Shown here in pieces: positions 6,705 through 60,196 of a DNA stretch of 60,544 bases; the first letter of the stretch is position 1, and each line of letters opens with the position of its first letter. The notes under the pieces are model-generated. The model saw nothing but the letters and a program-made list of their open reading frames with translations, ran no database searches and was not told the origin of the DNA. The translations under genes and the position numbers were made by a program. Source of the DNA: a virus (lineage: Duplodnaviria; Caudoviricetes); IMG/VR virus record IMGVR_UViG_3300048996_000071, positions 1 to 60,544 of that record; one strand, given 5' to 3'.

Positions 6705-7185
6705 AGGCACCCGTCCCAGGTAGGGGCGGGTGCTGGATGGGGGTGCAGGGGTTCGCGAGAATATCTCTTGACTTACCTGCGTGGTTCCCCATCCAGCTGT
6801 CAGGGCTGTATTGACACTGCATCGCAACGACAGATGGATCTGTACACCCTTGCCTCGCGGGTTTACGGTCCCCGGGGGGAGAGTTCTAACCCTTGAGCGC
6901 TTCGTGTTAACGAGTCCAGCTGCGCACGAGAGGCTTGCCTACATACGAGGCCCAGTGACTGCACCGATTTACTGAATCCATGCCGGGTCTTGGTAGGAAG
7001 ACCCACCTGCATGCGGCCTCGCCGCTCCACCTTGGCGTGGTCGGCGACGGAGGACAAGTCCGGCACCCGCCGAGGAGCATACGTGCCTGGAGGTCAATCC
7101 GGCCGGGATGGTGTACCAGCGGGACGACGCTTCAATCGGTGCAGTCACTGCGCCCAGCATATGGGTCGCCGTGCTGTGTTGCGTG
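6705..7185. ncRNA. candidate large structured RNA or long 5' leader
   Basis: Perfect 17-bp inverted repeat 6953-6969/7134-7150, an 11-bp stem 6732/6787 and several hairpins; no convincing ORF. Confidence 0.5.
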
Positions 7186-7190
7186 CTTGC

Positions 7191-7219
7191 ATCCTACCAC
7201 ATGGATCGGGGGATGTCAA
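7191..7219 (-). promoter_or_regulatory. housekeeping-sigma promoter
   Basis: TTGACA-17-TAGGAT. Confidence 0.8.
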
Positions 7220-7240
7220 CCCCCCGATCTCATGGCGAGA

Positions 7241-7519
7241 CTACCGCTTCGCGCGTTGCGCCCTGCGGCTCGGTCGTGCCGGAGTACTGGAGACCGGTTC
7301 GATCCAGTTGTTCGTGGTGTTGCTCTTGTGCGCATCCATCAGGCCGAACGCCACCGTGACCAGCGAGAACTGGTGCTTGCCGTGACGAACCGTCTCGTCG
7401 ATGCACTTCACCTTGTTGCCACGGTGCAGCACCTGGTAAATTCGGTGAAGCCGCTCCGACTTTGGATGCTCGGCCACGAAGGACCGAGAGCCGTGCGTGA
7501 TACACGTGAGATGTGCCAT
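7241..7519 (-). CDS. hypothetical protein
   Basis: 92 aa; GGAGG upstream. Confidence 0.6.
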   Translation of the reverse strand: MAHLTCITHGSRSFVAEHPKSERLHRIYQVLHRGNKVKCIDETVRHGKHQFSLVTVAFGLMDAHKSNTTNNWIEPVSSTPARPSRRAQRAKR

Positions 7520-7571
7520 CTACCTATCACCTCCAACCTGTCACGCGGGGTGTAGCTTCCATGCTGCTACG

Positions 7572-7734
7572 TGACCGCCGAGGGACTCGAACCCCCAACC
7601 TTTCCCCGGCGCGGTCAGTCGTGCGATACACCTTCCGAGTCCCTGCAGGGAGACGCGACGCTTCTCACGAAAGGCATACCTCGTGGCTGACCCCGTACTC
7701 CAGGGACTGCTCTATCCAGTTGAGCTAGACAGAC
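7572..7734 (-). ncRNA. tRNA-like RNA with a ~90-nt insertion replacing the anticodon loop
   Basis: D-arm TAGCTCAACTGGATAGAGCA, variable loop AGGTT, T-arm GGGGG-TTCGAGT-CCCTC, imperfect acceptor stem. Confidence 0.65.
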
Positions 7735-7841
7735 AACCAGTTGCGAGCGCCAGCCTGTCGTTCTCAGGTCTGCCGGACGCTGGCGGATCGGTTAGACCGA
7801 ATTTCCGTAATCCCAGATCTGCCGGGTAGCAACTCGTAACG

Positions 7842-7917
7842 TAGCGGGAACTGGATTTGAACCAGTGATCTTCGGCTTATGAGGCCGACGAGGACGACCT
7901 AACTCCTCTATCCCGCC
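7842..7917 (-). tRNA. tRNA-Met(CAT), initiator-like
   Basis: Full cloverleaf: GGCGGGA/TCCCGCT acceptor, TCGGC-CTCATAA-GCCGA anticodon arm, TTCAAAT T-loop; CCA not encoded. Confidence 0.9.
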
Positions 7918-7921
7918 GTGA

Positions 7922-7967
7922 CTCACCCCCGGCCTGCACATCGTGCCAGGCTCAGGCCGAGGGTGAG
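7922..7967 (-). terminator. long GC hairpin downstream of 7984..9129
   Basis: CTCACCCTCGGCCTG...CAGGCCGGGGGTGAG. Confidence 0.5.
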
Positions 7968-7983
7968 GGTATTACTGGGTAGA

Positions 7984-9129
7984 TCAGCCTACCAACTTGG
8001 CGGCCTTGCGACCGTCCGCGTTGATCACGCCTTCGATGCCGGGGATCGTGCACTTGGTGCCGTCGTTCGGGTCGTTCTTGTCGGGGAACAGGCGGGCTGA
8101 CACCGCGCCCGGGCTCGGCGACTCGGTGCCGTACTCGTCGGACGGAGTCTTGACGATCTCGTTGATCGAGAGCACGGTACCCACGGGCTTGCCGGCGAAG
8201 GCGCTCAGGATATGGTTCGCGATGTTCTTCCGAGTACCGTCGCCCGCCGCGCGAGGCGACCGGGGCGTTGAGGTGCCACTCGCGGCCTTGCGGGGCTTCG
8301 CGACGCTGGCCCGACCCCGGGCCAGCCGGAAGCCCGCCTTGATGACGTCGGTCGCCTCCGGCGCTTCCTTGTCGAGGGCCTCGCGGACCTCCTCGGTCGC
8401 ATCCTCGGGCAGCGCCGCCACCTTGTCCTGATGGGCAGCGTACGCCCGCGCTGCATCGATCAGCTGCTGGGTGGACTGCTCGTTGAGCTTGTCCGGCCAG
8501 TCAGCGTCGACGCCCTCGGGCACCCGCACCATGTAGGGTGCGATGTACAGGCCGAGCACCTGATCGATGAAGGCCTGCGTCACGTCGACGGTCACCTTCG
8601 GCGCCGCCGGCGCCTTCGCGCCGGTGCTGACCAGCGAGTGCTTCTTGATCATGAACCACGAGCGGGCGTACGGCGAAAGCGCCGGGTCCTCCATGGCTCG
8701 GCCGACCTCGGCGTCGACCCAGGTCTTGACCCTGGTGCGGACGGCACCGGCGGGCAGCTCGTTGAACTTGGCCCGAATGTCGTTCAGCACACCGTCGGGG
8801 AAGAAGCCGGTGCTTTCGTCGCGCACGTCGCTGCAGATCAGGCCGCCGACCCAGTCGCCCGATTCGTTCCTGACGCCGAGGTAGTCGATGAAGTCGGTGG
8901 CGAGCTTGTCGAGACGCGCAGCCTCGGCAGCGGCTTCCGCCTTGGCCTTCGCCTCGGTTTCGGCCGCAGCAGCAGCCTTCTGCTCCTCGGTCAGCTCGAC
9001 CGGCGCCTCGGGCGTGCCCTCGGTGGTCGAGTCGACCGCGTTGGGGTCGGTCGACTCAGCGCTGGCTTCGGTGCTGACAGTCACGGTCTCGGTCTCGCCG
9101 AGCACCGCACCGTCCTGGGAGTCAGACAT
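7984..9129 (-). CDS. acidic/Ala-rich protein with putative C-terminal winged-helix-like domain (paralog 1)
   Basis: GGAGG RBS; C-terminus HILSAF...EYG..SPSPGAVSARLF is shared with the two adjacent genes. Confidence 0.8.
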   Translation of the reverse strand: MSDSQDGAVLGETETVTVSTEASAESTDPNAVDSTTEGTPEAPVELTEEQKAAAAAETEAKAKAEAAAEAARLDKLATDFIDYLGVRNESGDWVGGLICSDVRDESTGFFPDGVLNDIRAKFNELPAGAVRTRVKTWVDAEVGRAMEDPALSPYARSWFMIKKHSLVSTGAKAPAAPKVTVDVTQAFIDQVLGLYIAPYMVRVPEGVDADWPDKLNEQSTQQLIDAARAYAAHQDKVAALPEDATEEVREALDKEAPEATDVIKAGFRLARGRASVAKPRKAASGTSTPRSPRAAGDGTRKNIANHILSAFAGKPVGTVLSINEIVKTPSDEYGTESPSPGAVSARLFPDKNDPNDGTKCTIPGIEGVINADGRKAAKLVG

Positions 9130-9179
9130 GTGCACCTCCAAGGTGTACGATAGTGTGTGTTCTCCGTGCGTCACCACCT

Positions 9180-9208
9180 ATGCTAGGCGATGGTTGGTCC
9201 TGTGTCCA
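9180..9208 (-). promoter_or_regulatory. promoter
   Basis: TGGACA-17-TAGCAT. Confidence 0.55.
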
Positions 9209-9397
9209 GCCGACCGGCGAAGATTTTTCCAACGTCGCTCGACCACGGACAACCCGACTATCGGGTGCCCTTGTGCGGGTGTGGATCGCGAGGCCCACAT
9301 TACGCTAACCCGCCCTGTTGCTAACCAGCAGAGTTGAATCCGCTGATTGTGACACTGTCGTCGTCCTCGATGTCTATGGCCAGGTATTCCCGGGCCA

Positions 9398-9853
9398 TCA
9401 GGCTACCTTGATCGCACCCTTCCTGCCAGCAGGGTACGCATCGCTGATGATCAGCGTACCCTTGACGTTGCCAACCGTGCGCGGCGTGCCGTCGGCGTCG
9501 AAGAGTCGCGCCGCAACGGCACCGGCCCCCGGAGAGTCGTCGCCGTACTCCACGGAACGATGCCTGGCGATCTCGGCGACCGTCAGCTCCGCGTGCTCGG
9601 GCTTGTCGGTAAAGGCACTGATGATGTGCTGGCCGACATCACGTCGCGGGCCGAAATACTTCTCGGCAAGATCAACCTTCGGCGCAGGCTCCTCCTCGTC
9701 GTATGCGCTCTTCCCGGTTTCGATCGTCTCGGCGAATTTGTCAAACGCCTCGGCGATCGACGAGTACACTCTCGCCTCGATGTGATCTTCCGTCAGATTG
9801 TAGTTCATGCGGAACTCTCGCGCAACGGCACGAGCCGCTCTGACTGCGTCCAT
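9398..9853 (-). CDS. putative winged-helix-like protein (paralog 2), leaderless
   Basis: HIISAF...EYGDDSPGAGAVAARLF; ATG lies 6 nt after the -10 box. Confidence 0.8.
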   Translation of the reverse strand: MDAVRAARAVAREFRMNYNLTEDHIEARVYSSIAEAFDKFAETIETGKSAYDEEEPAPKVDLAEKYFGPRRDVGQHIISAFTDKPEHAELTVAEIARHRSVEYGDDSPGAGAVAARLFDADGTPRTVGNVKGTLIISDAYPAGRKGAIKVA

Positions 9854-9859
9854 ACAACC

Positions 9860-9889
9860 ATCCTACCTTACACAGGCCGGTCATGTCAA
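9860..9889 (-). promoter_or_regulatory. leaderless promoter
   Basis: TTGACA-18-TAGGAT-6-ATG. Confidence 0.8.
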
Positions 9890-9899
9890 CCAGCTTTGT

Positions 9900-9938
9900 G
9901 CCTGGGGCGGGAATCGAACCCGCCCTGCACCATCAGGC
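9900..9938 (-). ncRNA. tRNA-like minihelix element
   Basis: GCCTG-ATGGTGCA-GGGCGGG-TTCGATT-CCCGCCC-CAGGC. Confidence 0.8.
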
Positions 9939-10565
9939 TACCCTTTCTCCACCCTTCACGTTGTTGACGTAGCAGGGCACGATGCCCGGCGTGAGCGACT
10001 CACGCTTCCCGTCGTCCGTACGGAACAGCCACGCCATGACGGCACCAGGTGACGGGTGGTTGTTGCCGTACTCCTCCGACGTGTGCGCGACAATCTGGGC
10101 AATCGTCAGCTTCGTGCCGATCGGCAGGTCAGCGAATGCCGAGATGATGTGCCTGGAGACCTGGCGCCGAACGGGCGTGCGCTGTAGGGCAGGATCACCC
10201 TTCGGCCCACAGTCCGGCCTCGGCTGCAACACAGCCTGCTCGTTGCGCCGCTGAATCACCCAGGGCCAATCGCCATCGATCAGGCCCTGCACGATCGCGC
10301 CAGCCAGCACCAAATTCAGCTGATCGAGGTTGGCGCCGCACTCGGCGGCCAGCGTATTGTAGTCGACCTGCATGCGGTCCCGAGCATCTGCATCGGGTGC
10401 GTAGTGAAGCAGCACCTCAAGCAGACTATAGCTCGCCGTACCGGGACCTGTCATGTCCCCTCCGATGATGATTCGCCGTAGTGTCTGGCTGGCCGTTTCG
10501 TGCGGGTACGCCATGCGGCGTATCTGTTCCCGCACTTCGTTGTCTACGCGCACCATTCTACTCAT
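9933..10565 (-). CDS. putative DNA-binding protein (RHH-like N-terminus, winged-helix-like C-terminus; paralog 3)
   Basis: N-terminus MVRVDNEVREQIRR..TASQTLRRII; C-terminus HIISAF...EYGNNHPSPGAV. Confidence 0.75.
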   Translation of the reverse strand: MSRMVRVDNEVREQIRRMAYPHETASQTLRRIIIGGDMTGPGTASYSLLEVLLHYAPDADARDRMQVDYNTLAAECGANLDQLNLVLAGAIVQGLIDGDWPWVIQRRNEQAVLQPRPDCGPKGDPALQRTPVRRQVSRHIISAFADLPIGTKLTIAQIVAHTSEEYGNNHPSPGAVMAWLFRTDDGKRESLTPGIVPCYVNNVKGGERVA

Positions 10566-10846
10566 GCGGCCACATTCCCGACTATGTCAGGCTGAGCAAC
10601 ATTCGGGTCGATGCCGACGGCTTTCGCCAGTCGACGTCCACCTGCAGTGCGGTAGAACCACAGCTGGTAATCTTGCATCCAGCTACGTACGCACTTCGTC
10701 GTCGGACACACCGTGTTCTGGTGGTCGCAGTGGTAGGATAGCCACTTGATCTCCAACTGGTACCAGGCGCCGTCCTGTTTCAGGACGGACGGCACGTAGT
10801 TGTAACCAGACAGCTTCCGTAGGTTGCGATACCTTTGTCTACCCAT
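10562..10846 (-). CDS. hypothetical protein, leaderless
   Basis: ATG 10846 lies 6 nt after TAGGAT. Confidence 0.7.
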   Translation of the reverse strand: MGRQRYRNLRKLSGYNYVPSVLKQDGAWYQLEIKWLSYHCDHQNTVCPTTKCVRSWMQDYQLWFYRTAGGRRLAKAVGIDPNVAQPDIVGNVAA

Positions 10847-10852
10847 GTACAC

Positions 10853-10881
10853 ATCCTATCACATGGATCGTTCACTTGCAA
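10853..10881 (-). promoter_or_regulatory. leaderless promoter
   Basis: TTGCAA-17-TAGGAT-6-ATG. Confidence 0.75.
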
Positions 10882-10917
10882 CCCCACTCTCCCAGAGCTT
10901 CAGGAGATTAGGAAAGC

Positions 10918-10957
10918 GCCTGGGGCGGGAATCGAACCCGCCCTGCACCTATCAGGC
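10918..10957 (-). ncRNA. tRNA-like minihelix element
   Basis: GCCTG-ATAGGTGCA-GGGCGGG-TTCGATT-CCCGCCC-CAGGC. Confidence 0.8.
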
Positions 10958-10967
10958 TTTGTGCACC

Positions 10968-11429
10968 TCAGCGACCGCCAGGCTGCCAACCATCAGGGCT
11001 GCTCGGACGCTTGGTGTGATCGCCAACCTCGAACCCGACCATTCTTTCGCGTCGGATCTGGTCAGTGATGTCCTGCTGGCCCTGCGCTTTATTGCGCCTG
11101 GGCAGCCCAGCCTCTGTCGGCTCGCTGGGCTCCGTGCCATCTGGACCCATCAGCGACGGGTTCCGCAGGAACACGCATTCCAGCATCGCCTGCGCGATGA
11201 AGTCGAACTCCTCACCCATCCGACCGGGCGTGTGCCCGAGGTTGGTCAGAAAGTCGACCGCCGCGTCTTTGGCGCCGTCGTAGATCCGTTCACCTTCCGA
11301 CAGGCCAAGAGTCAGCGCCAGGCGCAACCTCAACGACTGGTGAAGCATGCTCACCTGCCTGTGAGTCATCCTGTCGATAATGCTGACCTGGTCGAGTACG
11401 CCTTCGGCGTACTCGTGCTCATCTGGCAT
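10968..11429 (-). CDS. hypothetical protein (MPDEHEY...), paralog of 12281..12583
   Basis: Start follows the conserved ACTAGTCATG motif; shared DGA.D.A and Q.MLEC.F motifs. Confidence 0.7.
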   Translation of the reverse strand: MPDEHEYAEGVLDQVSIIDRMTHRQVSMLHQSLRLRLALTLGLSEGERIYDGAKDAAVDFLTNLGHTPGRMGEEFDFIAQAMLECVFLRNPSLMGPDGTEPSEPTEAGLPRRNKAQGQQDITDQIRRERMVGFEVGDHTKRPSSPDGWQPGGR

Positions 11430-11475
11430 GACTAGTGCCTCCCTACCATGTGCGCAGTAGTCTACTGCGCTACGT

Positions 11476-11523
11476 GCCTGGGCGAGGAATCGCACCCCGC
11501 CTGCACCGAACTATCGGCCAGGC
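11476..11523 (-). ncRNA. tRNA-like minihelix element (variant loop TGCGATT)
   Basis: GCCTG..GGTGCA-GGCGGGG-TGCGATT-CCTCGCC-CAGGC. Confidence 0.7.
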
Positions 11524-11525
11524 TA

Positions 11526-11606
11526 TCAGGTTTTGAGCGCTATGTACAGGGCCGCGGCAATGATTGCCGTTACCCAGAACACGCGTTTGAATGTGCCCCA
11601 GTCCAT
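11526..11606 (-). CDS. 26-aa membrane peptide MDWGTFKRVFWVTAIIAAALYIALKT
   Basis: Manual translation; GGGAGG RBS; stop lies 2 nt before a tRNA-like element. Confidence 0.6.
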   Translation of the reverse strand: MDWGTFKRVFWVTAIIAAALYIALKT

Positions 11607-11618
11607 GATACCTCCCTG

Positions 11619-12185
11619 TTACAGGTCGATCGTGGAGTGTCCGCATTCGAGCTCGTAGGCTGCCGTAGGATCACGGTGCGCCTCAACCACGAACCGACGG
11701 ACCACCCTGGGCGCACGCAGCGTACCGTCCACGAGGGGCGGGCAGCTATAGCATGGCCTGCGCTCGGGCGGCTGGACAAGGTGGCACCCGCAACCCAGCA
11801 CCTCGGTGTCCCGCTGTGGCCTGGCCCGGTAATCCCGGTACCAGTCCACCAGGGGCACGCGGACCAGGTGAATCGGGCAGTCGCGCAGCTCGGACAGACT
11901 CATCAGGCGCTCGTACTCGGCATGCCGCACGTCATCGGCACGGGACAGGTCGAGACCCTCCCGGTCGAACACGTGCTCGCAGTAACCCTCGTACGAGTGC
12001 TTGCCGCGCCTGGTGATCTCAGTGCCGCTGCCACAGGGCACGCAGTACCACGTGAACCGCAGCCAGCTGATCAGCGAGGCTCGGGATTCCGATTTGTACT
12101 CGAATCCCTGCAGCCAGTCGTAATACCAGTCCAGCTGCGCGTCACGACGGAACGAACGCACCTCGGCGTCTTCCATGTCACCCAT
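11619..12185 (-). CDS. Cys-rich hypothetical protein
   Basis: CVPC, CEH, CPIH, GCGCH, CYSC, ECGH motifs; conserved start motif. Confidence 0.7.
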   Translation of the reverse strand: MGDMEDAEVRSFRRDAQLDWYYDWLQGFEYKSESRASLISWLRFTWYCVPCGSGTEITRRGKHSYEGYCEHVFDREGLDLSRADDVRHAEYERLMSLSELRDCPIHLVRVPLVDWYRDYRARPQRDTEVLGCGCHLVQPPERRPCYSCPPLVDGTLRAPRVVRRFVVEAHRDPTAAYELECGHSTIDL

Positions 12186-12236
12186 GACTAGTGGGCCTTC
12201 CTACCATGGCCAGCCCCTGTCTAGGGCCAGCTACGC

Positions 12237-12276
12237 GCCTGGGGCGGGAATCGAACCCGCCCTGCACCAATCAGGC
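12237..12276 (-). ncRNA. tRNA-like minihelix element
   Basis: GCCTG-ATTGGTGCA-GGGCGGG-TTCGATT-CCCGCCC-CAGGC. Confidence 0.8.
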
Positions 12277-12280
12277 TTTA

Positions 12281-12583
12281 TCAGGTGACGATCTGCTTTT
12301 GTGCGAGCCTGTCCATGAACGGAACGTCATACATGAACGCGCACTCCAACATGGTCTGCGTGAGCCCATCGTACGATGGGCTCTGTGGATCGACCACGCC
12401 CGAGTCGTGAATCAGACTGATGGCGCGATCAACGGCGCCATCACGAATACTGGTCGCCTCGCTACTGGTTTCCAGCAGTACCGTCCTATTGATCAGGACG
12501 TTGTACAGCTGGAAGGTCAACTCTGTGGCCCGATCGTCCATGATCTGGCGAACGTCGTCGACCGTGAAGCTAGACTGTGACAT
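12281..12583 (-). CDS. hypothetical protein, leaderless
   Basis: TAGACA-17-TAGGAT-6-ATG (12590-12618). Confidence 0.75.
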   Translation of the reverse strand: MSQSSFTVDDVRQIMDDRATELTFQLYNVLINRTVLLETSSEATSIRDGAVDRAISLIHDSGVVDPQSPSYDGLTQTMLECAFMYDVPFMDRLAQKQIVT

Positions 12584-12631
12584 ACAGCCATCCTACTCTA
12601 CCGGCCAGCCCCTGTCTAGGGCCAGCACTGC

Positions 12632-12670
12632 GCCTGGGGTGGGAATCGAACCCACCCTGCACCATCAGGC
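12632..12670 (-). ncRNA. tRNA-like minihelix element
   Basis: GGGTGGG-TTCGATT-CCCACCC, a compensatory change relative to the other copies. Confidence 0.8.
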
Positions 12671-12677
12671 CTTCTGT

Positions 12678-13097
12678 TCAGCCGCCCAGAATACGATCGG
12701 CATAGTCCTCGTTGTACCACACGTTGCCAGCTCGATCCAGGCACGCCGATCCCTCCGCCTCGTGGCCGAGGTAGTCGGTACAGCGGCCAGCCTCATCGGA
12801 GGAAGACTTGCACCTGCCAAGGTAGCCCACCATGTCGAATCCCAGCTCGTCCAGTTTCGCGTTGCTGGGCTTCTGACCCTGGTAGGCCAGTGGCGTCGCC
12901 ACGTCGGTTGCAGCGAAGTCAGCCGGAATCACGCAGAACGCGATCCAGTCATACTCCTCCATGTCACGGACGGCGTTCAGGATGTGCTCCTGGACCAGGG
13001 CGTTCGACCGAAAGGTCTCTTCGCCCTGCATGAACACGTCCGTCTCGGTCTGCTCGCCTGATCGAAGCGCGATCGTCACGTTTGCCCGTACAGCCAT
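12678..13097 (-). CDS. hypothetical protein (MAVRANVT...)
   Basis: Start follows the ATTAGTCATG motif. Confidence 0.7.
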   Translation of the reverse strand: MAVRANVTIALRSGEQTETDVFMQGEETFRSNALVQEHILNAVRDMEEYDWIAFCVIPADFAATDVATPLAYQGQKPSNAKLDELGFDMVGYLGRCKSSSDEAGRCTDYLGHEAEGSACLDRAGNVWYNEDYADRILGG

Positions 13098-13144
13098 GAC
13101 TAATGACCTTCCTACCATGTGCGCAGCTGTCTACTACGCAACGC

Positions 13145-13183
13145 GCCTGGGGCGGGAATCGAACCCGCCCTGCACCATCAGGC
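13145..13183 (-). ncRNA. tRNA-like minihelix element
   Basis: Identical to the 9900-9938 copy. Confidence 0.8.
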
Positions 13184-13187
13184 CTTA

Positions 13188-13484
13188 CTAGAGTTTCGCG
13201 ATCCAGAAGATCCACCTGCCGACCAGGAACGACTGGCCACCGTTGCGCTCGACATCGGCCTCGACGCGTTCAGTGTCGAGGACGCGAAGCGAGGCTTCCA
13301 GGTTGAAACGCTGGTAGGCGGTCAGCACCTGGCGCCCGCCCTCACCTTTGAGAATAGCGCCGAAGCCCTTCCAGGCATCCTCGAAGTTCGGGTATTCGAT
13401 GGTGTTGGCAGTGATGGTGGCGTGTCCTGGGCTGTTCCAGCCCACGGTCCACGTACCGGCCGTCTTGATCATTTCGACAGTCAT
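13188..13484 (-). CDS. hypothetical protein (MTVEMIK...)
   Basis: Start follows the ACTAGTCATG motif. Confidence 0.7.
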   Translation of the reverse strand: MTVEMIKTAGTWTVGWNSPGHATITANTIEYPNFEDAWKGFGAILKGEGGRQVLTAYQRFNLEASLRVLDTERVEADVERNGGQSFLVGRWIFWIAKL

Positions 13485-13534
13485 GACTAGTGACCATTCT
13501 ACCCAGGCCAGCCCCTGTCTAGGGCCAGCTTTGC

Positions 13535-13581
13535 GCCTGAGGCGGGAATCGAACCCACCCACACCCCACCAGGAGCCAGGC
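13535..13581 (-). ncRNA. tRNA-like minihelix element
   Basis: GCCTG..GGGTGGG-TTCGATT-CCCGCCT-CAGGC with G-U pairs. Confidence 0.75.
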
Positions 13582-13588
13582 TTTTGTA

Positions 13589-13864
13589 CTAGTCGCCGTA
13601 GCAGCGGAAGCAGTAGCTCCATCCCCTGCACCAGTGACCCTGGTCGATGGCCGCACCCCAAGGGGTACGGTACAGCACTCCCTCGCGTCGCATGGCAGCG
13701 AATGCCAGCTCGACAGCGTACTCCTCGGCGAGCGGTGGCTGACTATAACGCACCTCGTGAGGCAGGTCATAGTCAACATAGTAGCTCACCCACCAGTCCA
13801 CCTGGAAGGTGAACATCTTCCGCTGGTGTTCCGGCAGCATGCCCAATGCAACTTCCAGCTTCAT
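13589..13864 (-). CDS. hypothetical protein
   Basis: 91 aa; conserved upstream module. Confidence 0.7.
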   Translation of the reverse strand: MKLEVALGMLPEHQRKMFTFQVDWWVSYYVDYDLPHEVRYSQPPLAEEYAVELAFAAMRREGVLYRTPWGAAIDQGHWCRGWSYCFRCYGD

Positions 13865-13915
13865 AGCTAGAGTCCCATTCTACCCTGGCTGGCCCCTGTC
13901 TAGGACCAGCACTGT

Positions 13916-13957
13916 GTCCAGGGTGGGAGTCGAACCCACCAGATCACCAATCTGGAC
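13916..13957 (-). ncRNA. tRNA-like minihelix element
   Basis: GTCCAG..GGTGGG-TTCGACT-CCCACC-CTGGAC (6+6 bp, covarying). Confidence 0.75.
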
Positions 13958-14061
13958 GCGTGGCAGGGTTATTTGAGATCACGCACATTGCCTGGCCAGC
14001 CTGTGCGTAACCTGCGAGGTACCATACTGAGCCGCCCCATGCCATACAGAGGCCCTCTACG

Positions 14062-14127
14062 TAGCATCCCGGAATCGAATCCGGCAGTAGACGAGGAGTG
14101 CCCGCCCACCGGCTAACCTGCAATGCC
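14062..14127 (-). ncRNA. degenerate tRNA-like element
   Basis: GGCATT...CCGGATTCGATTCCGG-GATGCT-A; stack is imperfect. Confidence 0.4.
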
Positions 14128-14162
14128 GACCACTCACCACCCCCGTCCTTGGGGGTGAGTCC

Positions 14163-14789
14163 CTATTTGCCAGTGTATTCGCGCACCTGGCGAGCGTGTT
14201 CGATGGCGACCCTGGCAGCCCGCATGATCTGCGGACTGAGTTTGCCCGTGAACCCGTACTTGGACTTCACGTAGGCAGCGATCTCGGCCCTGGTCGGGCC
14301 GTTGCCGCTGGCGCCACCGTTGCTGGAGCTGGTGCGGGTGCTGGCAGCGCGCTTGGGTGCAGCGCCGCCCTTCGGCGCACGCTTCACCTTCGACGCGGCG
14401 GCAGCCCTGTTGTCCAGCTTCTCGGCAACAGCGGGCTTCACCACGCGGGCCACCTTTAGCGGACCGTCAGGCGTGTCGATCATGCGCTGGACCAGGCGAT
14501 CACGACCCACGAACCAGACACCTTTGTCAGTGTCATAGCGCGGGTAGTTGTCGACCTCGTCCTGGCTGACCGAGATGCCGGGTCGGGGACTGGCGGGCGT
14601 GTTGTTCGGCGCTGATTCCAACGGCGAACGCACGCCCACGCAGAACCCCGTCATCGGGTTCACCACGTCGACCAGTTTGTTACCACCCAGGTCTCGGCGA
14701 CGCAGCATGGAATGAGGTTCGACCCGATTCTGGACGAACATGCGTTCCGTGCGCAGCTGTTCCTGCGTGATCACAATTGGTTCAGTCAT
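14163..14789 (-). CDS. basic protein with Lys/Ala linker and possible Lsr2-like C-terminal DNA-binding module
   Basis: C-terminus RAEIAAYVKSKYGFTGKLSPQIMRAA; conserved start motif. Confidence 0.7.
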   Translation of the reverse strand: MTEPIVITQEQLRTERMFVQNRVEPHSMLRRRDLGGNKLVDVVNPMTGFCVGVRSPLESAPNNTPASPRPGISVSQDEVDNYPRYDTDKGVWFVGRDRLVQRMIDTPDGPLKVARVVKPAVAEKLDNRAAAASKVKRAPKGGAAPKRAASTRTSSSNGGASGNGPTRAEIAAYVKSKYGFTGKLSPQIMRAARVAIEHARQVREYTGK

Positions 14790-14836
14790 GACTAATGACC
14801 TTCCTACCATGTGCGCAGCTGTCTACTACGCAACGC

Positions 14837-14876
14837 GCCTGGGTGGGGAATCGAACCCCACCTGCACCTATCAGGC
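14837..14876 (-). ncRNA. tRNA-like minihelix element
   Basis: GCCTG-ATAGGTGCA-GGTGGGG-TTCGATT-CCCCACC-CAGGC. Confidence 0.8.
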
Positions 14877-15122
14877 TTTGTTATTCGAAGTGATGTCAAC
14901 CGTGATGTCAGCCGTGACCAGTTCTCCCTGCATCGCGTTCAGCTCCAGCTTCACGAAGTGCAGGTACTCGTCATCGGTCATCAGGCCCCTGCGATATTGC
15001 GCCAGGATCTTTTCCAGGTACGCCATGTGCGTCGCACGGATGGCATCACTGATCATGTCGTTCAGCTTCCTGGTACGCCTGGTCATCGGCCGCTCGACAG
15101 CTTCGATGGTGATTTCCGGCAT
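14871..15122 (-). CDS. hypothetical protein
   Basis: 83 aa; GGGAGG RBS; stop lies inside the tRNA-like element. Confidence 0.7.
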   Translation of the reverse strand: MPEITIEAVERPMTRRTRKLNDMISDAIRATHMAYLEKILAQYRRGLMTDDEYLHFVKLELNAMQGELVTADITVDITSNNKA

Positions 15123-15170
15123 GACTAATGCCTCCCTACCAGTGCGTGCCCCTGTCTAGGACACGCTAGC

Positions 15171-15238
15171 GGCTGTAGGGGGAATTGAACCCCAGTAGGA
15201 CCAGGCGCCCCCATATTGCCAGGCGCCCATCTACAGCC
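15171..15238 (-). ncRNA. tRNA-like element (first of the array)
   Basis: GGCTGTAG...GGGG-TTCAATT-CCCC-CTACAGCC (8+4 bp), starting 9 nt after a TAGTGT -10-like box. Confidence 0.7.
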
Positions 15239-16015
15239 AAACCATACACACTACCTATCTTCGGTGCCACCTAGCTAGTCAGGCTAGGTGTAGAACTGTT
15301 TTGTTTGATCCCCGTCCCGGTGTTGGCGTAACGCCTTTCGGCGCCGCCCCCGTTTCGGGGAACGTTACCCGACTCATTTACCCGAGAGTCAGGGCCGGAG
15401 GGAGTGTTCGGCGCCCGGTTTGATCGATCCATGGCTCTACCACGGAGGTGCACGATCCCTCGTTTCAGCTAACCGCTGGTCACTATCCGACTAGGGGTGA
15501 ACCTAGGGCCAAAGGTCGCACATGAACCGTGATCCTGTTTCAGTCGCTACCGGTAGGCCGGTCGCGACGTCCCCAGGCGGAACGCGGGCTAGCAATGGCG
15601 CTGTGTTCACGCCGTTGTACGGGTCTGGCAATCGGCACAGGCTGGCCGCTATCACGTCCGATTCACCCAGTTGCCGTTCGGCCGTGCGCTACTAGGTCGG
15701 GAGTGCGCGTTCAGGCATCGGCTAGATGTTTCGCTAGCCACACACCCTACAGGCGGTGCACCTACCGTTCCCGCACGTCCCGTCAGGGTCGTGGGTGAAT
15801 GCGAACCGCGCAGTAATGATTGCGCGACCCGAATTCGGAGGGTCAACCCAGGTGTAACGTGCGCACCCGGGGTCTAGCTGGTGTTGCGCGGCCCGTTGTG
15901 GCGCCGGTAGTACCGTAACACAGGTGGTGCAATGTGCGCCAGCCGGTATCCCGTGTGTGGGATGTGGGTTACAACGTCGGCCCGCCCGGCCCCGGTGTTC
16001 TGTGGCCGTGTCAAA

Positions 16016-16044
16016 ACCATACGTCCAGGGCCTACCGGTGTCCA
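16016..16044 (-). promoter_or_regulatory. promoter
   Basis: TGGACA-17-TATGGT. Confidence 0.55.
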
Positions 16045-16467
16045 GCTACATTCCTGTGATGCGGGTCACAGGATATATCTGCACGTCAGTGGGGGTTAGG
16101 GCCAGATGGTGATAGTACGGTCACCGTAGCATGCCATCGACAGCAATCTATGTACACCGTAAACAGTTTACGGCGTACAGTGATCCCCGTCACTGTTTTT
16201 GCGGGGACGTATCGGTACCTGTCCGGCAAGTCCGTTATGTCGCCCAGGCGCCGTGACCTGCCAAAACGCCGTAGGATGGCGCCTAGCGGCCTAGCGGGAA
16301 GGGGTCGGCATGATTGGGTGTGCCTTATGTGATCATGGCCCTACGGCCGTCCTAGGTGCCTTAAACGGGCATCCTAGGGACGGGATGGCATCGTCCGTTG
16401 GCCCGTCGTGGGGTGACCAGGGACGATGCCGCGCCTAGGCGTACGCATGGACAGGGATCGATGGCTC

Positions 16468-16548
16468 GTCCACATAGGACCGTCAACAGTGGACGTCTAC
16501 TGTGGACGGTCATTTGTGGACGTCCACTGTGGACCGTCCACAGTGGAC
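16468..16548. repeat. six tandem copies of the 13-bp palindrome GTCCACWGTGGAC
   Basis: Copies at 16468, 16482, 16495, 16509, 16522 and 16536; the last two are perfect. Confidence 0.85.
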
Positions 16549-16758
16549 CCTATGCATGGACAGACGTCGATATGACCAGCTACCTAGTATCCTAGGATGC
16601 CCAGACAAGTCTCTATACTTGCTACGCAGTATAGGGTATACGGTGTATGGGGTTAGGGCAGGCGGCGCTGGTGTGGGGGTATGGGGGTATGGTGTATCTG
16701 ATTGCAGGCGCATACAACATAGGGCCACAGGGCCACACGTGCTCGTAGTTGATCATGC

Positions 16759-16778
16759 CTTGTTTCACGTGAAACAAG
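16759..16778. promoter_or_regulatory. parS: parS centromere site
   Basis: CTTGTTTCACGTGAAACAAG contains the exact consensus TGTTTCACGTGAAACA. Confidence 0.85.
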
Positions 16779-17089
16779 ATGGCCAACCGTTTGACTGCCG
16801 ACCCGTTTATTTCTGTGTGCCGATAGCGTGCGCTATCGGCCCGGACCAGACTAGGACAAAACGGACAGGCGATATATAGCCATATGGCCTGACCCGGGGG
16901 TGGGAAAATGATCATGGGGGGTGGCGCGCGGGGCTTGGACCAAAGTCGATGCTCATAATTTTTTGAAGATATCATGATCAACTAACAGCGTCTGCACCTT
17001 CAAATCTGTTCCCACCTCCCCGAGCACGACCCCGCTACGCATACACTGAGTGCTCGACCACCAAGAGCCTAGGCCAGTAGTATTCCACT

Positions 17090-17610
17090 ACAGTAGGTTT
17101 CCTATATTTCTCCTATGTATCTACTATATTTCTCCTATATTATTTCCATAATATATATGCAGGTCAAACACTATATGATCATGCTTTTAGGATATACGGA
17201 ACCAACCCCGAACCCCCGGGGATACTGTAGGGAATCGGCCCTGGTGGGCGAGCGCTATGCGTGAGCTGTGCTACTCGTTACTCTACGTTACGTAGCTATA
17301 AGTATGATCGGAAAAATTTTGGTTTCACGGGGCTTAAGAAAAAATTGCCACTTATCCGGTCCGGGGTGTCACGACCCCCCGGCGGTTCCATAATAAAAGA
17401 CTGTCGACGTTTCCGCAGGTCAACCCTAAAGTGTTTACGGAAAACAAAACGGAAAACAGCCCGAGTGACATATTGTTTCCGTTAATAAAATGTCTCCGTA
17501 TATCTACTGGAATTTCTGTGTTTCCATAATTTCCATAATACCTGTACCGATGTCACGCTGCGTATATATGGAAACGGAGATTTGGCGTTTCCGTAATGTT
17601 TCCATAATAG
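17090..17610. repeat. AT-rich region with TTTCC(A/G)TAAT-like repeats; candidate replication origin
   Basis: Local GC drop; repeated tttccataat/tttccgtaat/tttctcctat motifs, some inverted. Confidence 0.55.
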
Positions 17611-17644
17611 CTGTTCTGATGCCGGGGTCCGATAGTGCAAGCGC

Positions 17645-17673
17645 TTGACGCCGGGCAGCGACACGCCTATACT
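17645..17673 (+). promoter_or_regulatory. promoter
   Basis: TTGACG-17-TATACT. Confidence 0.75.
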
Positions 17674-17709
17674 AGGCGTGTCGCGCAAAGCACTACCCGA
17701 AGGAACACT

Positions 17710-17994
17710 GTGTCTGCCCCTGTTGCGGAGTCCCCCACCCGCGTCATTCCCACTGTTACCGTTCCGACCGAGATTGCAGTCGTGCTGGCTCGCGACTCGG
17801 CGCGGCGACAGTCGCGCCACCGCATGCAGCGTGCGGCGCGGATCTACTCCGGCAAGACCACCTTGCTTGATAAGGTCTCCACCTACCCCGACAAGGGGTG
17901 GGCGGCGCTGATCCTCATCGGGACCGCCTTCGTCTTCACTGGCGTCGGATTCGCGGTCGCCCTCGTGGTCGAGTCCATCGTCAAGTCTGCCTAG
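17710..17994 (+). CDS. small membrane protein
   Basis: AAGGA RBS with GTG start; C-terminal transmembrane segment. Confidence 0.65.
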   Translation: MSAPVAESPTRVIPTVTVPTEIAVVLARDSARRQSRHRMQRAARIYSGKTTLLDKVSTYPDKGWAALILIGTAFVFTGVGFAVALVVESIVKSA

Positions 17995-18011
17995 GGTAGG
18001 AGTAACCCATC

Positions 18012-18278
18012 ATGGCGGAGCCAGCTCCTACCCACAGGGAGCGCCTTAATAGGGCGCGAGCGGCCGGCACGTACGAGGATCTGCGTCCTCAGCTCACCGA
18101 ATTGCTCGCCAACCGGCACCTGTCATTCGCCATGGCGGCGGCTGCGCTCGGCATGGCGACGAAGACTGTCCGTATGGCGGCGGCTGCGCTTCGCATCAGC
18201 AACGTGAACGCGAACCCAGGGAAAGGACTTGTGACCATCATCAGAGCCTATACCGCCGACTGGGATCGCGGCTGGTAG
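18012..18278 (+). CDS. helix-turn-helix protein
   Basis: LSFAMAAAALGMATKTVRMAA HTH pattern; AGGAG RBS. Confidence 0.65.
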   Translation: MAEPAPTHRERLNRARAAGTYEDLRPQLTELLANRHLSFAMAAAALGMATKTVRMAAAALRISNVNANPGKGLVTIIRAYTADWDRGW

Positions 18279-18351
18279 GGTGGGTCTAGCTAAGCCGGGA
18301 GAAACGACCCCGCCCTCAATACACACTCGTACCGGCACTCCCTACTAAGAC

Positions 18352-18385
18352 AAGCAGGCCCCCAGGTTTCCCTGGGGGCCTGCTT
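18352..18385. terminator. terminator between convergent genes
   Basis: AAGCAGGCCCCCAGG-TTTC-CCTGGGGGCCTGCTT. Confidence 0.8.
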
Positions 18386-18397
18386 CGCTCTGTCGGG

Positions 18398-18817
18398 TCA
18401 GCTAGCTAGTCTGGCCCGGCTTCTGTGTAGCATTCGTGCGACGCTCAACGGAATCAGGTGGTCCCGGCGGAGGGTCCGGACTTCCTTGAGCTTGCGACGC
18501 TTGGGCGGCTGGACATCCAGTGCGTAGTGGTATGTCGCGGCATAGGCGATGAAGGCGTCCAGGAACGCGTCGTACCGGCGGACTGCTGAGATACGTTCCG
18601 TCTGCGCGCCGTTCATTCTGCGCTGGACTTCCCGGCCGTAGTCGCGGTTAGCTTTCCTGCACATCGGCCCATCGCAGCCCAGCGCCTTCGTGGCGCGTCT
18701 GCCGTGCGGGTAGGCCGCGTACTCTTGGTCGAGCAGCTCCTCCCTGCAAGCCAGCAGGAAGGGCCAGTGATCGTCAGACCATTCGCCATCGCCCAGCTCG
18801 GGAACAACCAGCATCAT
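18398..18817 (-). CDS. hypothetical protein with HG...GCxxxxC motif
   Basis: ATGA overlap with the helicase gene. Confidence 0.65.
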   Translation of the reverse strand: MMLVVPELGDGEWSDDHWPFLLACREELLDQEYAAYPHGRRATKALGCDGPMCRKANRDYGREVQRRMNGAQTERISAVRRYDAFLDAFIAYAATYHYALDVQPPKRRKLKEVRTLRRDHLIPLSVARMLHRSRARLAS

Positions 18818-20961: not shown

Positions 20962-21926
20962 TGATCAGAGACGGTCATGGCCTCGATCGCATTGCGTTCC
21001 CTGAATTCAGTCATGCGGTGCCGGACGTCCAGGAACTGGGGCAGGTAGTGCTCAACCCCGTCGGGCACCTTCATGTTGCGTCCGAGCGGGAGGCGCATCA
21101 GGTTTCCCAGCTGCTTCTCCTTGTCGGAAACCGTGTCCTGCTTGGGGAAGATTTCCACCGACAGCTGCGGCATGTCCTGTACCGGGTCGCCGAACTTGGC
21201 GCGGTGTTTGAAGAAGTTCTTCCCGCGCAGCAGCTCGAACCTGTCCGTCTGCAGAAGCACCATCGTCGCCAGCTCGCGAGCGACTGACGCTTCGGTCGGC
21301 TCATCCAGGATGACGTAGACGTGCATGCCCTTGTGGCCCGAGTACGTCACCAACGTGCGGTAGCCCAGGAGGTTCTGTGACTCCACGGCCAGGATCTGCG
21401 CCATGGTCCGCATCTGGTACACGAGAAACTTCTCGACGTACTCCGGCCTGTGGGGATTCTCCCAGGCGCCGCGAGGATCGCCGTCAACGAAGTGGTCCCA
21501 CGCAGTATTGATGGGATCAATGCTGATCGGCATCGGGTAGTACCGACCCTCAGGCCAGGTCATGTACTTACCTGCCTCTTTCGCCTCCTCCAAGTCAATG
21601 TCGAAGGCGAAGAACTTGACGGTGCCGGTCTGGCTAACCAGGTAGTGGCCCATGCTGGACTCGCCGCGGATGTGCTTCGCCAGGTCCTGGCGGGTGATGC
21701 GCTCGCGTACCGGGTACCAGCTTCCGTCGGGTCGCTGGAATGCCTTCACGTCCGGCCGGGAGATGAACGTCTTGGCAAAGAGATTCGCCAAGGTGTCCTG
21801 CTCCTCGGCGGTGTATTGCCTGCTGTGCAACACGCCTCCAGAGAGAACAAGTGGCCACCCGCTACGGTGGCCGAGTGGATATTCTGATGTGGTCCCGGCG
21901 CCGATAGACCTATTTGCGCAGGTCAT
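20937..21926 (-). CDS. archaeo-eukaryotic primase (AEP/prim-pol) catalytic domain
   Basis: FAFDID, SGHKGMHVY, GNLMRLPLG; true start may be near 21830. Confidence 0.8.
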   Translation of the reverse strand: MTCANRSIGAGTTSEYPLGHRSGWPLVLSGGVLHSRQYTAEEQDTLANLFAKTFISRPDVKAFQRPDGSWYPVRERITRQDLAKHIRGESSMGHYLVSQTGTVKFFAFDIDLEEAKEAGKYMTWPEGRYYPMPISIDPINTAWDHFVDGDPRGAWENPHRPEYVEKFLVYQMRTMAQILAVESQNLLGYRTLVTYSGHKGMHVYVILDEPTEASVARELATMVLLQTDRFELLRGKNFFKHRAKFGDPVQDMPQLSVEIFPKQDTVSDKEKQLGNLMRLPLGRNMKVPDGVEHYLPQFLDVRHRMTEFRERNAIEAMTVSDQWAGVMTE

Positions 21927-55431: not shown

Positions 55432-55620
55432 TCTTGGTCTCCTTGCCAGCCGCCCGAGTCCGACGCTTTCCGCCCCAGACGCCGTATCGCTCATCCCGCC
55501 GAATTGCACTCGTGTCGCACTCCCGGCGAACCGGGCAGCCGAAGCACCATCCAGCCACGGCGTCGTCGCCTGTCTCCGACTTCCCAGGATAGAAGATGTC
55601 CTGGTAACTCTCGACACCGA

Positions 55621-56124: not shown

Positions 56125-56152
56125 TTGTGGTCCCTTGTGTCCCGGGGGTGGA

Positions 56153-56905: not shown

Positions 56906-57149
56906 CGATCTCGCCGTCCATTACTCGTTGTTCCGGGGATAGATAAAGCAATGCGGCCAGTAATGCGCCGACCGGGTTTGCGTCCTGATCGATCAGGACG
57001 GCCTGCGTGTAGTGGCCGAGGGCCGGGCCACGATCGACGTTGACCTTCATGTGATACTCGACTGACTTCCCATAGCGCCGCATGGGCGAGAGGTCAACAG
57101 TGCCGACCTGCTCGCCCATGCCGTCACGTATGGTGACGTGAAGTTCCAT
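56835..57149 (-). CDS. hypothetical protein
   Basis: Start coupled to the upstream stop. Confidence 0.55.
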   Translation of the reverse strand: MELHVTIRDGMGEQVGTVDLSPMRRYGKSVEYHMKVNVDRGPALGHYTQAVLIDQDANPVGALLAALLYLSPEQRVMDGEIVDSSSDSPDSSRYERGGPPALAG

Positions 57150-58150: not shown

Positions 58151-58159
58151 GCCTAACTC

Positions 58160-60182: not shown

Positions 60183-60196
60183 GGCTCACCTCGTCG

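Follow-up and report, generated by a model that had tools for sequence, protein, structure and literature searches.

An array of tRNA-like elements between early genes of a soil actinophage

The 60,544-bp linear viral contig IMGVR_UViG_3300048996_000071, analysed here over its full length (hereafter the window), comes from a soil metagenome and is estimated to be 77% complete. It belongs to a soil actinophage whose genes lie on the minus strand from 1 to 21.9 kb. In this leftward early-gene block, small genes are separated by a repeated junction composed of a tRNA-like element (TLE) followed by a short module that ends at the next start codon (Table 1); the array is read on the minus strand throughout. 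The cassette open reading frames (ORFs) encode products of 24–210 aa, none of which matched a Pfam family (0 of the 10 proteins tested) and most of which (7 of the 10) had no match in PHROG. Three consecutive genes (7984–9177, 9398–9853, and 9933–10565) have in common a C-terminal domain of ~85 aa (40–44% identity) corresponding to phrog_6708, of unknown function, and form a local family of paralogues that extends across two junctions. The ORFs 12281–12583 and 10968–11429 are also paralogues, although distant ones (32% identity over 66 aa). Homologues in other sequences are few, 11 for the 208-aa protein (14163–14789) and only three for the protein of the 11533–12185 cassette, and most of them are found on contigs of 1–5 kb. 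The array is therefore surrounded by ORFan and paralogous small genes, a plastic ORFan region like those that house the PeSL cassettes of T4-type phages (see below).

A preliminary description of this DNA had reported nine spacers of 46–51 nt between a tRNA mimic and the next ATG. We recovered all of them, with lengths of 46, 46, 51, 48, 47, 50, 51, 47, and 48 nt when counted from the last acceptor base to the ATG. Eight of the nine contain the composite motif TAGAC[AT]...GTAG[GA][AG][AT]GG, which has no other match in the 60,544-bp record and is always on the minus strand (eight matches versus 0.00 expected; none of 100 shuffled sequences contained any). YTAGTCATG terminates six of the spacers and is found at no other site of the record. 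The segments 13095–13151 and 14787–14843, which had been reported to be the same, are indeed identical at 57 of 57 positions, and this identity is delimited by the ATG on one side and, on the other, by the border of the T stem. The array also reaches past the coordinates first given, with additional mimics at 15171–15238, 10918–10957, 7573–7616, and 695–748.

Anatomy of the tRNA-like element

The TLEs are 39–68 nt long and correspond to the top half of a tRNA: they possess an acceptor-like stem and a T arm and are devoid of anticodon and D arms. The T-arm consensus GGTTCRANYCC occurs 12 times in the window, always on the minus strand (none on the plus strand; 0.60 sites expected; 0 of 100 shuffled sequences reached 12), and one of these sites belongs to a genuine tRNA-Met gene (7842–7917). 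We anchored on the T loop alone 28 copies, 12 from the window (including the tRNA-Met) and 16 from the Gordonia phage VanLee (see below), and in 26 of these 28 minus-strand copies all three outer pairs of the T stem were formed, compared with ~1–2 of the three in slid controls. The 12 nt that follow the T loop are fully paired, some of them within an extended T stem and the others with an acceptor-like strand located upstream. The sum of acceptor and T-stem pairs is at least 12 in all 13 window sequences (the 12 TLEs and the tRNA-Met) and in 15 of the 16 VanLee copies, with a variable split between the two stems (8/4, 7/5, 6/6, or 5/7). The linker of the TLEs measures 8–16 nt or is replaced by a small extra arm. 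GG is present in every case, mostly as GGU, and would be a stand-in for the D-loop residues G18–G19. After the stack, every copy has a purine discriminator followed by C, never by CCA; no CCA is encoded after the tRNA-Met either, and its ACGT trailer is that of the TLEs. The TLEs start 0–10 nt past the preceding stop codon and always lie on the gene strand. When isolated copies were folded, the predicted minimum-energy structure had this same shape, with a frequency of up to 0.93. The extended hairpin that RNAalifold proposed instead of the acceptor stem was rejected, as it is broken by the copy at 13916–13957, which keeps the acceptor pairing.

Searches for canonical tRNAs (ARAGORN and Rfam) found only the tRNA-Met and called none of the TLEs. 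Compared with Rfam, the TLEs stayed below every threshold, with 20–25 bits to the tRNA-Sec family for a gathering score of 47 (the element at 15171–15238 gave a weak 23.5 bits). They nevertheless combine the T arm with GGTTCRANYCC, the 12-bp stack, and the purine discriminator that characterize tRNAs. They also have the sequence and position attributes of plant-mitochondrial t-elements, namely a non-canonical fold, the T-arm motif, an acceptor-like stem, and a location beside coding regions and outside tRNA genes.

Over 24 nt, the 3′ half of the TLE is identical to tRNA-Leu(TAA) genes found in unrelated bacteria, and matches of this type, in unrelated bacteria, were the only ones retrieved when genome contigs were scanned with this half; they offer no hint as to the host. 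In view of this match, the TLE looks like a class II tRNA minus its D and anticodon arms. The same 24-nt tRNA-Leu-type half is also present in a piece of an Arcticibacter chromosome (2788–2811) and in a contig of a Thermoleophilia metagenome-assembled genome (4884–4907), where ARAGORN calls no tRNA; these copies may be tRNA fragments or remnants of att sites.

The tRNA-Leu(TAA) match makes a tRNA origin plausible, and the TLEs could accordingly be selfish tRNA-derived repeats, similar to miniature inverted-repeat transposable elements or short interspersed nuclear elements, or decayed tRNA genes without any function for the phage. The lack of such arrays in distant helicase relatives (see below) would also fit. 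However, every copy lies on the same strand and comes after a stop codon, and the fold is kept through double changes. Decay would not repeatedly strip exactly the D and anticodon arms while sparing the 12-bp stack, and the parts are arranged in the same order in two phage lineages that are unrelated. For these reasons, we regard a selfish or decayed origin as highly unlikely to explain the array.

Recurrence in Gordonia phages and conservation of the fold

Megablast searches with the region 9000–16000 gave no match among phages, and patterns describing the junctions had none in viral contigs or in metagenome contigs. The only nucleotide match of the array, detected by blastn, was that of the mimic at 11473–11531 with Gordonia phage VanLee. 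In the right arm of VanLee, gaps of ~100 nt between small leftward genes each contain a mimic. It is usually followed, 1–2 nt past the discriminator, by a covarying hairpin. Next comes a leader with the conserved CACGGCACCCAAC...GGAG, which precedes the start codon. The same order of mimic, hairpin, Shine-Dalgarno leader, and start is found in the phages Morgana and Cafasso; according to their records, all three were cultured on Gordonia rubripertincta. These VanLee-type phages are distant from the window (terminase ~27% identical). Their leaders, where inspected, show no obvious −10/−35 boxes by eye, which suggests co-transcription. VanLee encodes in addition a Ro-like RNA-binding protein (65751–67367 of its record) whose gene adjoins a tRNA-Arg (region 65454–67367), with the TLE array located elsewhere in the genome, as well as a nucleotidyltransferase and a polynucleotide kinase (57959–58672 and 59765–60226). 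A second T-arm motif is found ~100 nt upstream of this tRNA-Arg.

Relatives of the window itself were also looked for through its helicase-primase. A search with this single protein retrieved nothing in viral contigs. Eight distant relatives (six metagenome and two IMG/VR loci, 37–48% identity) carry no TLE array and are too distant to inform on cassette turnover; closer helicase homologues exist (73–81% identity, on contigs of up to 73,771 nt). One distant IMG/VR relative has a single three-arm tRNA-like element (20573–20647) with a 7-bp acceptor, a long hairpin, and a T arm, and no array.

To search for TLEs we used a covariance model (R1) whose seed comprised only six VanLee and Morgana copies of equal length, out of more than 30 Gordonia copies, because MAFFT misplaced the acceptor-strand gaps in TLEs of unequal length. 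At E ≤ 0.01, R1 detected 9 matches in the window, 15 in VanLee, 11 in Morgana, and 11 in Cafasso, all co-oriented with the local genes, and the window copies had E values of ~1e-6 to 2e-5. By contrast, R1 found no match at E ≤ 1 in ~85 kb of the distant helicase relatives. We relied on this model-based count, as a null based on shuffling the acceptor of single elements was weak (p between 0.04 and 0.7). In the alignment of 50 distinct copies, which was fitted to the model, 97.1% of the cells were paired, versus 73.2% in shuffled and 38–57% in slid controls, and 10 of the 12 TLE pairs showed changes on both sides (125 cells). A single-strand fold with tRNA-specific features is under selection at the borders of cistrons in at least two phage lineages.

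The hairpin, the box, and the start codon

The module that follows the TLE begins with a second hairpin of 6–8 bp, located 4–5 nt into the spacer as counted from the discriminator. Its loop is TAGACAG in seven of the nine units and its stem has at least four different sequences. In the alignment of these hairpins, which keeps one row (the hairpin of the 9854 unit) a column out of register, 95.3% of the cells were paired, compared with 73.4% when shuffled and 33–56% when slid, and four of the six pairs had changed on both sides. The nine stems contain 11 G·U pairs, and in eight of the nine spacers folding is more favourable for the sense than for the antisense strand (mean difference 5.9 kcal/mol), which argues for selection on the sense strand, most simply as RNA.

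Downstream of the hairpin, the box GGTAG(G/A)(A/G)(A/T)GG is followed in six units by CAYTAGTC and the ATG. Since Shine-Dalgarno sequences elsewhere in the genome are ordinary, we consider this box specific to the array. Near 18013, GGTAGGAG is also used by a gene of the plus strand. The six units ending in YTAGTCATG are best read as Shine-Dalgarno leaders, with 8–10 nt between the box and the ATG. Three junctions out of 10 (9854, 10847, and 12584) have instead a −35-like hexamer, a spacing of 17 or 18 nt, and TAGGAT placed 6 nt before the ATG (Table 1), and we read them as putative sigma-70-type promoters for leaderless mRNAs. The preliminary description had called the whole set an expression module, a label that is half right, as the units divide into six probable leaders and three promoter-like junctions.

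These three junctions lend some weight to an interpretation at the DNA level, according to which each junction would be a transcription cassette comparable to the PeSLs. The GC-rich TLE hairpin would stop or insulate transcription, the module would be a promoter (−35 box TAGACA; −10 box TAGGAT, TAGAAT, or TAGGAA), and each gene would be a moron-like unit. The three junctions indeed have a canonical geometry, in which exactly 6 nt separate the −10 hexamer from the ATG, and two of them were picked up by a consensus scan. The strictly conserved loop sequence TAGACA matches TTGACA at five of six positions, and PeSLs, found in the ORFan regions of T4-type phages, unite a promoter and a stem-loop (PMC2839356). 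Nevertheless, in the six YTAGTCATG units the distance from TAGAC(A/T) to TAGNNN is only 13–14 nt and the final T is missing from four of these hexamers. None of the TLEs is followed by a T-run, and the scan for terminator-like sites, based on a consensus only, found none on the minus strand in 9000–19000. Moreover, a plain terminator needs neither a T-loop consensus nor a GG linker nor a 12-bp stack, the second hairpin relies on G·U pairs, which only the sense strand can form, and the VanLee-type junctions possess TLEs and, by eye, no promoter-like boxes. We thus hold a PeSL-like transcription cassette to be a rather unlikely explanation for the array as a whole.

Table 1 Elements, modules, and genes of the array, listed in the direction of reading
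Feature	Position	Strand	Characteristics
First TLE	15171–15238	−	Three-arm; 8-bp acceptor, 4-bp T stem; no upstream ORF; minimum-energy fold with acceptor, central arm, and T arm
Module	15123–15170	−	Hairpin 15144–15166, loop TAGACAG; box GTAGGGAGG (15131–15139), then CATTAGTC and ATG
Cassette ORF	14871–15122	−	83 aa
TLE	14837–14876	−	5-bp acceptor, 7-bp T stem; R1 E value 5e-6
Module	14790–14836	−	Hairpin 14812–14832; within the 57-bp identity (14787–14843 = 13095–13151)
Cassette ORF	14163–14789	−	208 aa; no Pfam or PHROG match; 11 homologues, mostly on 1–5-kb contigs
Irregular spacer	13958–14162	−	Strong hairpin 14138–14157; degenerate T-arm-like site 14071–14082; no R1 match; possibly what is left of a lost cassette, or the site of a very small ORF
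TLE	13916–13957	−	6-bp acceptor, 6-bp T stem; acceptor GTCCAG/CTGGAC versus GCCTG/CAGGC, changed on both strands
Module	13865–13915	−	Hairpin 13888–13910; box GTAGAATGG
Cassette ORF	13589–13864	−	91 aa
TLE with extra small arm	13535–13581	−	Weak R1 match (E value 0.06)
Module	13485–13534	−	Hairpin 13507–13529; box GTAGAATGG, then CACTAGTC and ATG
Cassette ORF	13188–13484	−	98 aa
TLE	13145–13183	−	5-bp acceptor, 7-bp T stem
Module	13098–13144	−	Hairpin 13120–13140
Cassette ORF	12678–13097	−	139 aa
TLE	12632–12670	−	5-bp acceptor, 7-bp T stem
Module, putative promoter type	12584–12631	−	TAGACA-17-TAGGAT-6-ATG, leaderless geometry; hairpin 12604–12626
Cassette ORF	12281–12583	−	100 aa; distant paralogue of 10968–11429
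TLE	12237–12276	−	5-bp acceptor, 7-bp T stem; minimum-energy fold frequency 0.93
Module	12186–12236	−	Hairpin 12209–12231; box GTAGGAAGG, then CCCACTAGTC and ATG
Cassette	11533–12185	−	188-aa ORF (11619–12185), then 24-aa hydrophobic ORF (11533–11606) with ordinary GGGAGG Shine-Dalgarno
TLE with extra arm	11476–11523	−	Copy matching Gordonia phage VanLee by blastn
Module	11430–11475	−	Hairpin 11452–11470; box GTAGGGAGG
Cassette ORF	10968–11429	−	153 aa
TLE	10918–10957	−	5-bp acceptor, 7-bp T stem
Atypical 71-nt spacer	10847–10917	−	TTGCAA-17-TAGGAT-6-ATG, read directly; below the cut-off of the consensus scan
Two overlapping ORFs	9933–10846	−	94 aa (10562–10846) and 210 aa (9933–10565)
TLE	9900–9938	−	5-bp acceptor, 7-bp T stem
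Module, putative promoter type	9854–9899	−	TTGACA-18-TAGGAT-6-ATG; hairpin 9876–9894
ORF	9398–9853	−	151 aa; C-terminal domain common with 9933–10565 and 7984–9177
tRNA-Met (CAT), genuine	7842–7917	−	Same strand and block; no encoded CCA, ACGT trailer; TLE 7573–7616 ~225 nt downstream
Outlying TLE	7573–7616	−	6-bp acceptor; then hairpin and Shine-Dalgarno
Outlying three-arm TLE	695–748	−	7-bp acceptor; then GATAGGAGG and ATG

Recombination at the junctions

The preliminary description also saw in the unit formed by the element and its module a portable junction allowing the gain, loss, and shuffling of genes, and proposed that breakpoints in related phages should fall within it. We carried out this comparison on the analogous Gordonia phage arrays only, using the chain of blastn matches between Morgana and Cafasso, in which the ends of the high-scoring segment pairs are approximate. 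This collinear chain has seven discontinuities, three of which touch a mimic, that is, three of the four found within the mimic-bearing part. Morgana gene 154 (VanLee gene 143) and one junction are absent from Cafasso, where the single remaining junction is a chimera, its 5′ side being that of the upstream mimic of Morgana and its 3′ side that of the downstream module. The shared CGGGGCACG, located where the acceptor of the TLE has its 3′ end, contains the switch. The crossover, the only one resolved, is thus placed in a 9-nt stretch common to both flanking copies, which directly follows the shared 12-nt T-loop stretch, and homology alone is therefore enough to explain it. In addition, one mimic of which Cafasso has a single copy is duplicated in tandem in Morgana. 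At Morgana 15310–15442, two TLE copies are found 88 nt apart with ~40 nt between them, including a possible mini-ORF, an arrangement that resembles a junction duplication in the making.

Both the cassette indel and the junction duplication break, consequently, inside the mimic, and these Gordonia breakpoints, together with a real repeated unit among ORFan and paralogous genes, partly support the portable character of the junction; that it should need more than homology is not borne out. In the lineage of the window, the signs of recombination are indirect: the 57-bp identity starting at the acceptor 3′ strand, the homologues on short contigs, and assembly breaks at mimics. Concerning the latter, the public contigs of the source DNA run, a soil metagenome, break at TLEs (7000–9904, 9909–10945, and 10920–12262). 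Joints between these contigs, with sides of 20–22 nt and less than 95% likeness, were not trusted.

The same description had considered a site-specific recombinase, which would recognize the TLE as an integron-like or attP-like site. The position of the Gordonia breakpoints inside the TLE would agree with it, as would the start of the 57-bp identity exactly at the acceptor 3′ strand; the 3′ parts of tRNAs are common integrase targets (PMC5559632, Table 2), and VanLee encodes a tyrosine integrase (PMC8320454). Yet we found no tyrosine or serine recombinase in the 60.5-kb record (no match to PF00589, Phage_integrase, or PF00239, Resolvase, at E ≤ 1), an absence that is not proven since the record is only 77% complete. 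The 9-nt stretch shared at the crossover requires just homology or microhomology, four of the seven Morgana/Cafasso discontinuities touch no TLE, and an att site acting as double-stranded DNA needs no compensatory upkeep of tRNA tertiary-structure features. A dedicated recombinase acting on the TLEs appears, in consequence, very improbable. What our analysis adds to the earlier reading is precisely this compensatory maintenance of the tRNA-specific architecture of the mimic and the G·U pairs of the second hairpin. Together, they argue that the primary function is exerted by a single strand in its folded state, for which the sense RNA is the simplest candidate, and that recombination is a by-product.

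Gene content around the array

Directly upstream of the array, the region 15239–18010 (~2.7 kb) is devoid of convincing ORFs. It contains AT-rich TTATGGAAA/GGAAAC-type repeats, recurring GTCCACAGTGGACG-like words, several sigma-70-like sites, and a near-perfect 56-bp palindrome (16467–16522), and may be an origin and/or an early control region. After a gene ending near 18398, the minus strand can form a strong GC-rich hairpin, with CUUGUCUU behind it (18350–18423). It is probably a terminator; its Rfam matches to small RNAs or terminators are weak and below threshold. Genes for replication and recombination occupy 18814–21926 and 54259–57778. They encode a helicase-primase with DUF3987 and CHC2 zinc-finger domains, an AEP-type primase, a PD-(D/E)XK nuclease, and an N6/N4 DNA methylase, as well as a protein with a weak RusA-like resolvase match. 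We did not see lysogeny genes in the parts of the record that were scanned.

A putative role in the processing of early RNA

The interpretation that we favour, giving it about an even chance, is that the TLEs serve as processing and stability punctuation of the early RNA, like the t-elements of plant mitochondria, and that the repeats act secondarily as scaffolds for recombination, like the PeSLs. Each TLE would be transcribed within the mRNA and the host tRNA-maturation enzymes would treat it as a CCA-less pre-tRNA, with RNase P acting at its 5′ end and either RNase Z or exonucleases together with the CCA-adding enzyme acting at its 3′ end. The early polycistron would in this way be cut between cistrons and/or the upstream message would end in a stable tRNA-like cap. 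The downstream fragment would start 4–5 nt before the 6–8-bp hairpin with its conserved loop UAGACAG, a putative 5′-end stabilizer, and would continue with the Shine-Dalgarno-like box GGUAG(G/A)(A/G)(A/U)GG, the conserved CAYUAGUC, and the AUG. Three of the 10 junctions would have become sigma-70-type promoters for leaderless mRNAs instead. The first TLE (15171–15238), which has no upstream ORF, fits with the removal of a long leader. As the ~90-bp unit is repeated in direct orientation, it would also offer, as a by-product, a substrate for the homology-driven deletion, duplication, and exchange of genes.

Several points weigh against such a processing role. A 7-bp acceptor is a major determinant for RNase P (PMC4201824), whereas the commonest form of TLE in the window has only a 5-bp acceptor, for which the 12-bp stack may compensate. 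Cleavage by RNase P would leave the upstream mRNA ending 0–10 nt past its stop codon with no protective 3′ structure. The three promoter-like junctions and the −35-like loop TAGACA keep a DNA-level reading in play, and the model does not account for how strictly the loop UAGACAG and CAYUAGUC are conserved. The fitting of the TLE alignment to the covariance model inflates the pairing somewhat, although the margin over the controls is large. Lastly, a recombinase acting on folded single-stranded DNA would also give rise to a conserved structure with variable sequence, from which covariation alone does not discriminate; the attC sites of integrons likewise show structure conserved over sequence.

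The TLEs might also be the product rather than the signal, namely stable mini-tRNAs that, once excised, would act in trans as decoys or sponges for host proteins that bind the acceptor end or the elbow of tRNAs, such as tRNA-targeting toxins, the CCA-adding enzyme, modification enzymes, or Ro/PNPase particles. This would agree with the many copies of a minimal and very stable fold (minimum-energy frequency up to 0.93) that keep the tRNA parts read by such enzymes, with their location in early gene blocks of the host-takeover type, and with the Ro-like protein, nucleotidyltransferase, and polynucleotide kinase of VanLee. The Ro-associated Y RNAs also carry tRNA-like modules, in phages too (PMC4201824). 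However, we found no gene for a TROVE (Ro) protein or a PolyA_pol (CCA-adding) enzyme in the record, and a trans-acting RNA does not require tight coupling to an upstream stop codon and a downstream start codon. We judge the decoy role improbable.

Comparison with known systems

Integron attC arrays contain short, co-oriented genes of mostly unknown function, separated by structured repeats in which the fold is more conserved than the sequence. The TLE array resembles them in both its co-oriented short unknown genes and its fold-conserved repeats. It differs in that no integrase was found (in a record 77% complete) and in that its repeats are tRNA mimics provided with their own translation signals, three of them with putative promoters. 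One could conceive an integrase-free integron-like system, in which mini-tRNA joints would be cut by host tRNA-processing enzymes, a dozen or more CCA-tailed mini-tRNAs would act in trans as decoys for host factors or defences that recognize the acceptor end and elbow of tRNAs, and the genes would be swappable; we find this combination improbable.

In plant mitochondria, RNase Z and RNase P generate mRNA 5′ and 3′ ends at the borders of the t-elements, which, once excised, receive non-templated C or CA (Forner et al. 2007, PMC1920247). With the TLEs the t-elements have in common a non-canonical tRNA-like fold, a T arm with GGTTCRANYCC, an acceptor-like stem, and a position beside coding regions in polycistronic transcripts. 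The TLEs, unlike them, occur in an actinobacterial phage, are smaller, lack anticodon and D arms, and form a dense array of at least 10 units with a fixed hairpin and Shine-Dalgarno module.

PeSLs consist of a strong sigma-70 promoter and a terminator stem-loop in T4-type phages (Arbiol et al. 2010, PMC2839356). Like the TLE units, they are short composite repeats inserted between non-essential ORFans in a plastic early region and, as in the Gordonia arrays, recombination from copy to copy explains insertions, deletions, and replacements between close relatives. In contrast with PeSLs, the TLE unit carries a tRNA mimic without U-tract, and only three of the 10 junctions are promoter-like.

The module is in turn reminiscent of the start-associated sequences (SAS), and of their extended form (ESAS), of Cluster K mycobacteriophages (PMC3203893), where a conserved asymmetric box with a Shine-Dalgarno core is found just before the ATG of non-structural genes, in one orientation, often with an inverted repeat just upstream; their function was still described as unverified in 2025 (PMC12699233). 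A SAS is defined by a 13-bp consensus, with two mismatches at most, located 3–7 bp ahead of the start codon. This consensus had nine matches in the window at three mismatches versus 18.5 expected, and none at the junctions with up to three mismatches. In addition, RNA pairing is not supported by the departures from the ESAS consensus (Pope et al. 2011, PMC3203893), in contrast with the covarying hairpin of the present module, and the passages dealing with SAS in PMC3203893 and PMC12699233 describe no tRNA-like element comparable to the TLE.

YrlA RNAs are, like the TLEs, partial tRNA mimics (acceptor, T arm, and D-loop features) in Actinobacteria and phages, and the tRNA-like module of Mycobacterium smegmatis YrlA undergoes RNase P cleavage in vitro and CCA addition in vivo (Chen et al. 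2014, PMC4201824). YrlA is, however, a single free-standing non-coding RNA encoded next to a Ro60 gene and endowed with a Ro-binding stem, whereas the TLEs are many and lie between cistrons. The window has no TROVE match, which sets its elements apart from the YrlA RNAs.

The literature that we consulted gave no description of tRNA-mimic arrays between phage genes, including PMC10690425, whose supplementary tables (its structured-RNA catalogue) might list the fold. The announcement of the VanLee genome (PMC8320454) does not mention the mimics.

The array combines elements of several known kinds, the punctuation of t-elements, the shuffling of PeSL type, and start-associated sequences. If the TLEs are processing signals, the tRNA punctuation known from organelles would have been reused by bacteriophages to express and insulate their host-takeover genes. 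This would explain the unannotated, apparently “empty” gaps of ~100 nt in several Gordonia phage genomes and would provide a rule to predict the mature ends of their mRNAs. One and the same repeat would then serve both the expression of these genes and their modular exchange.

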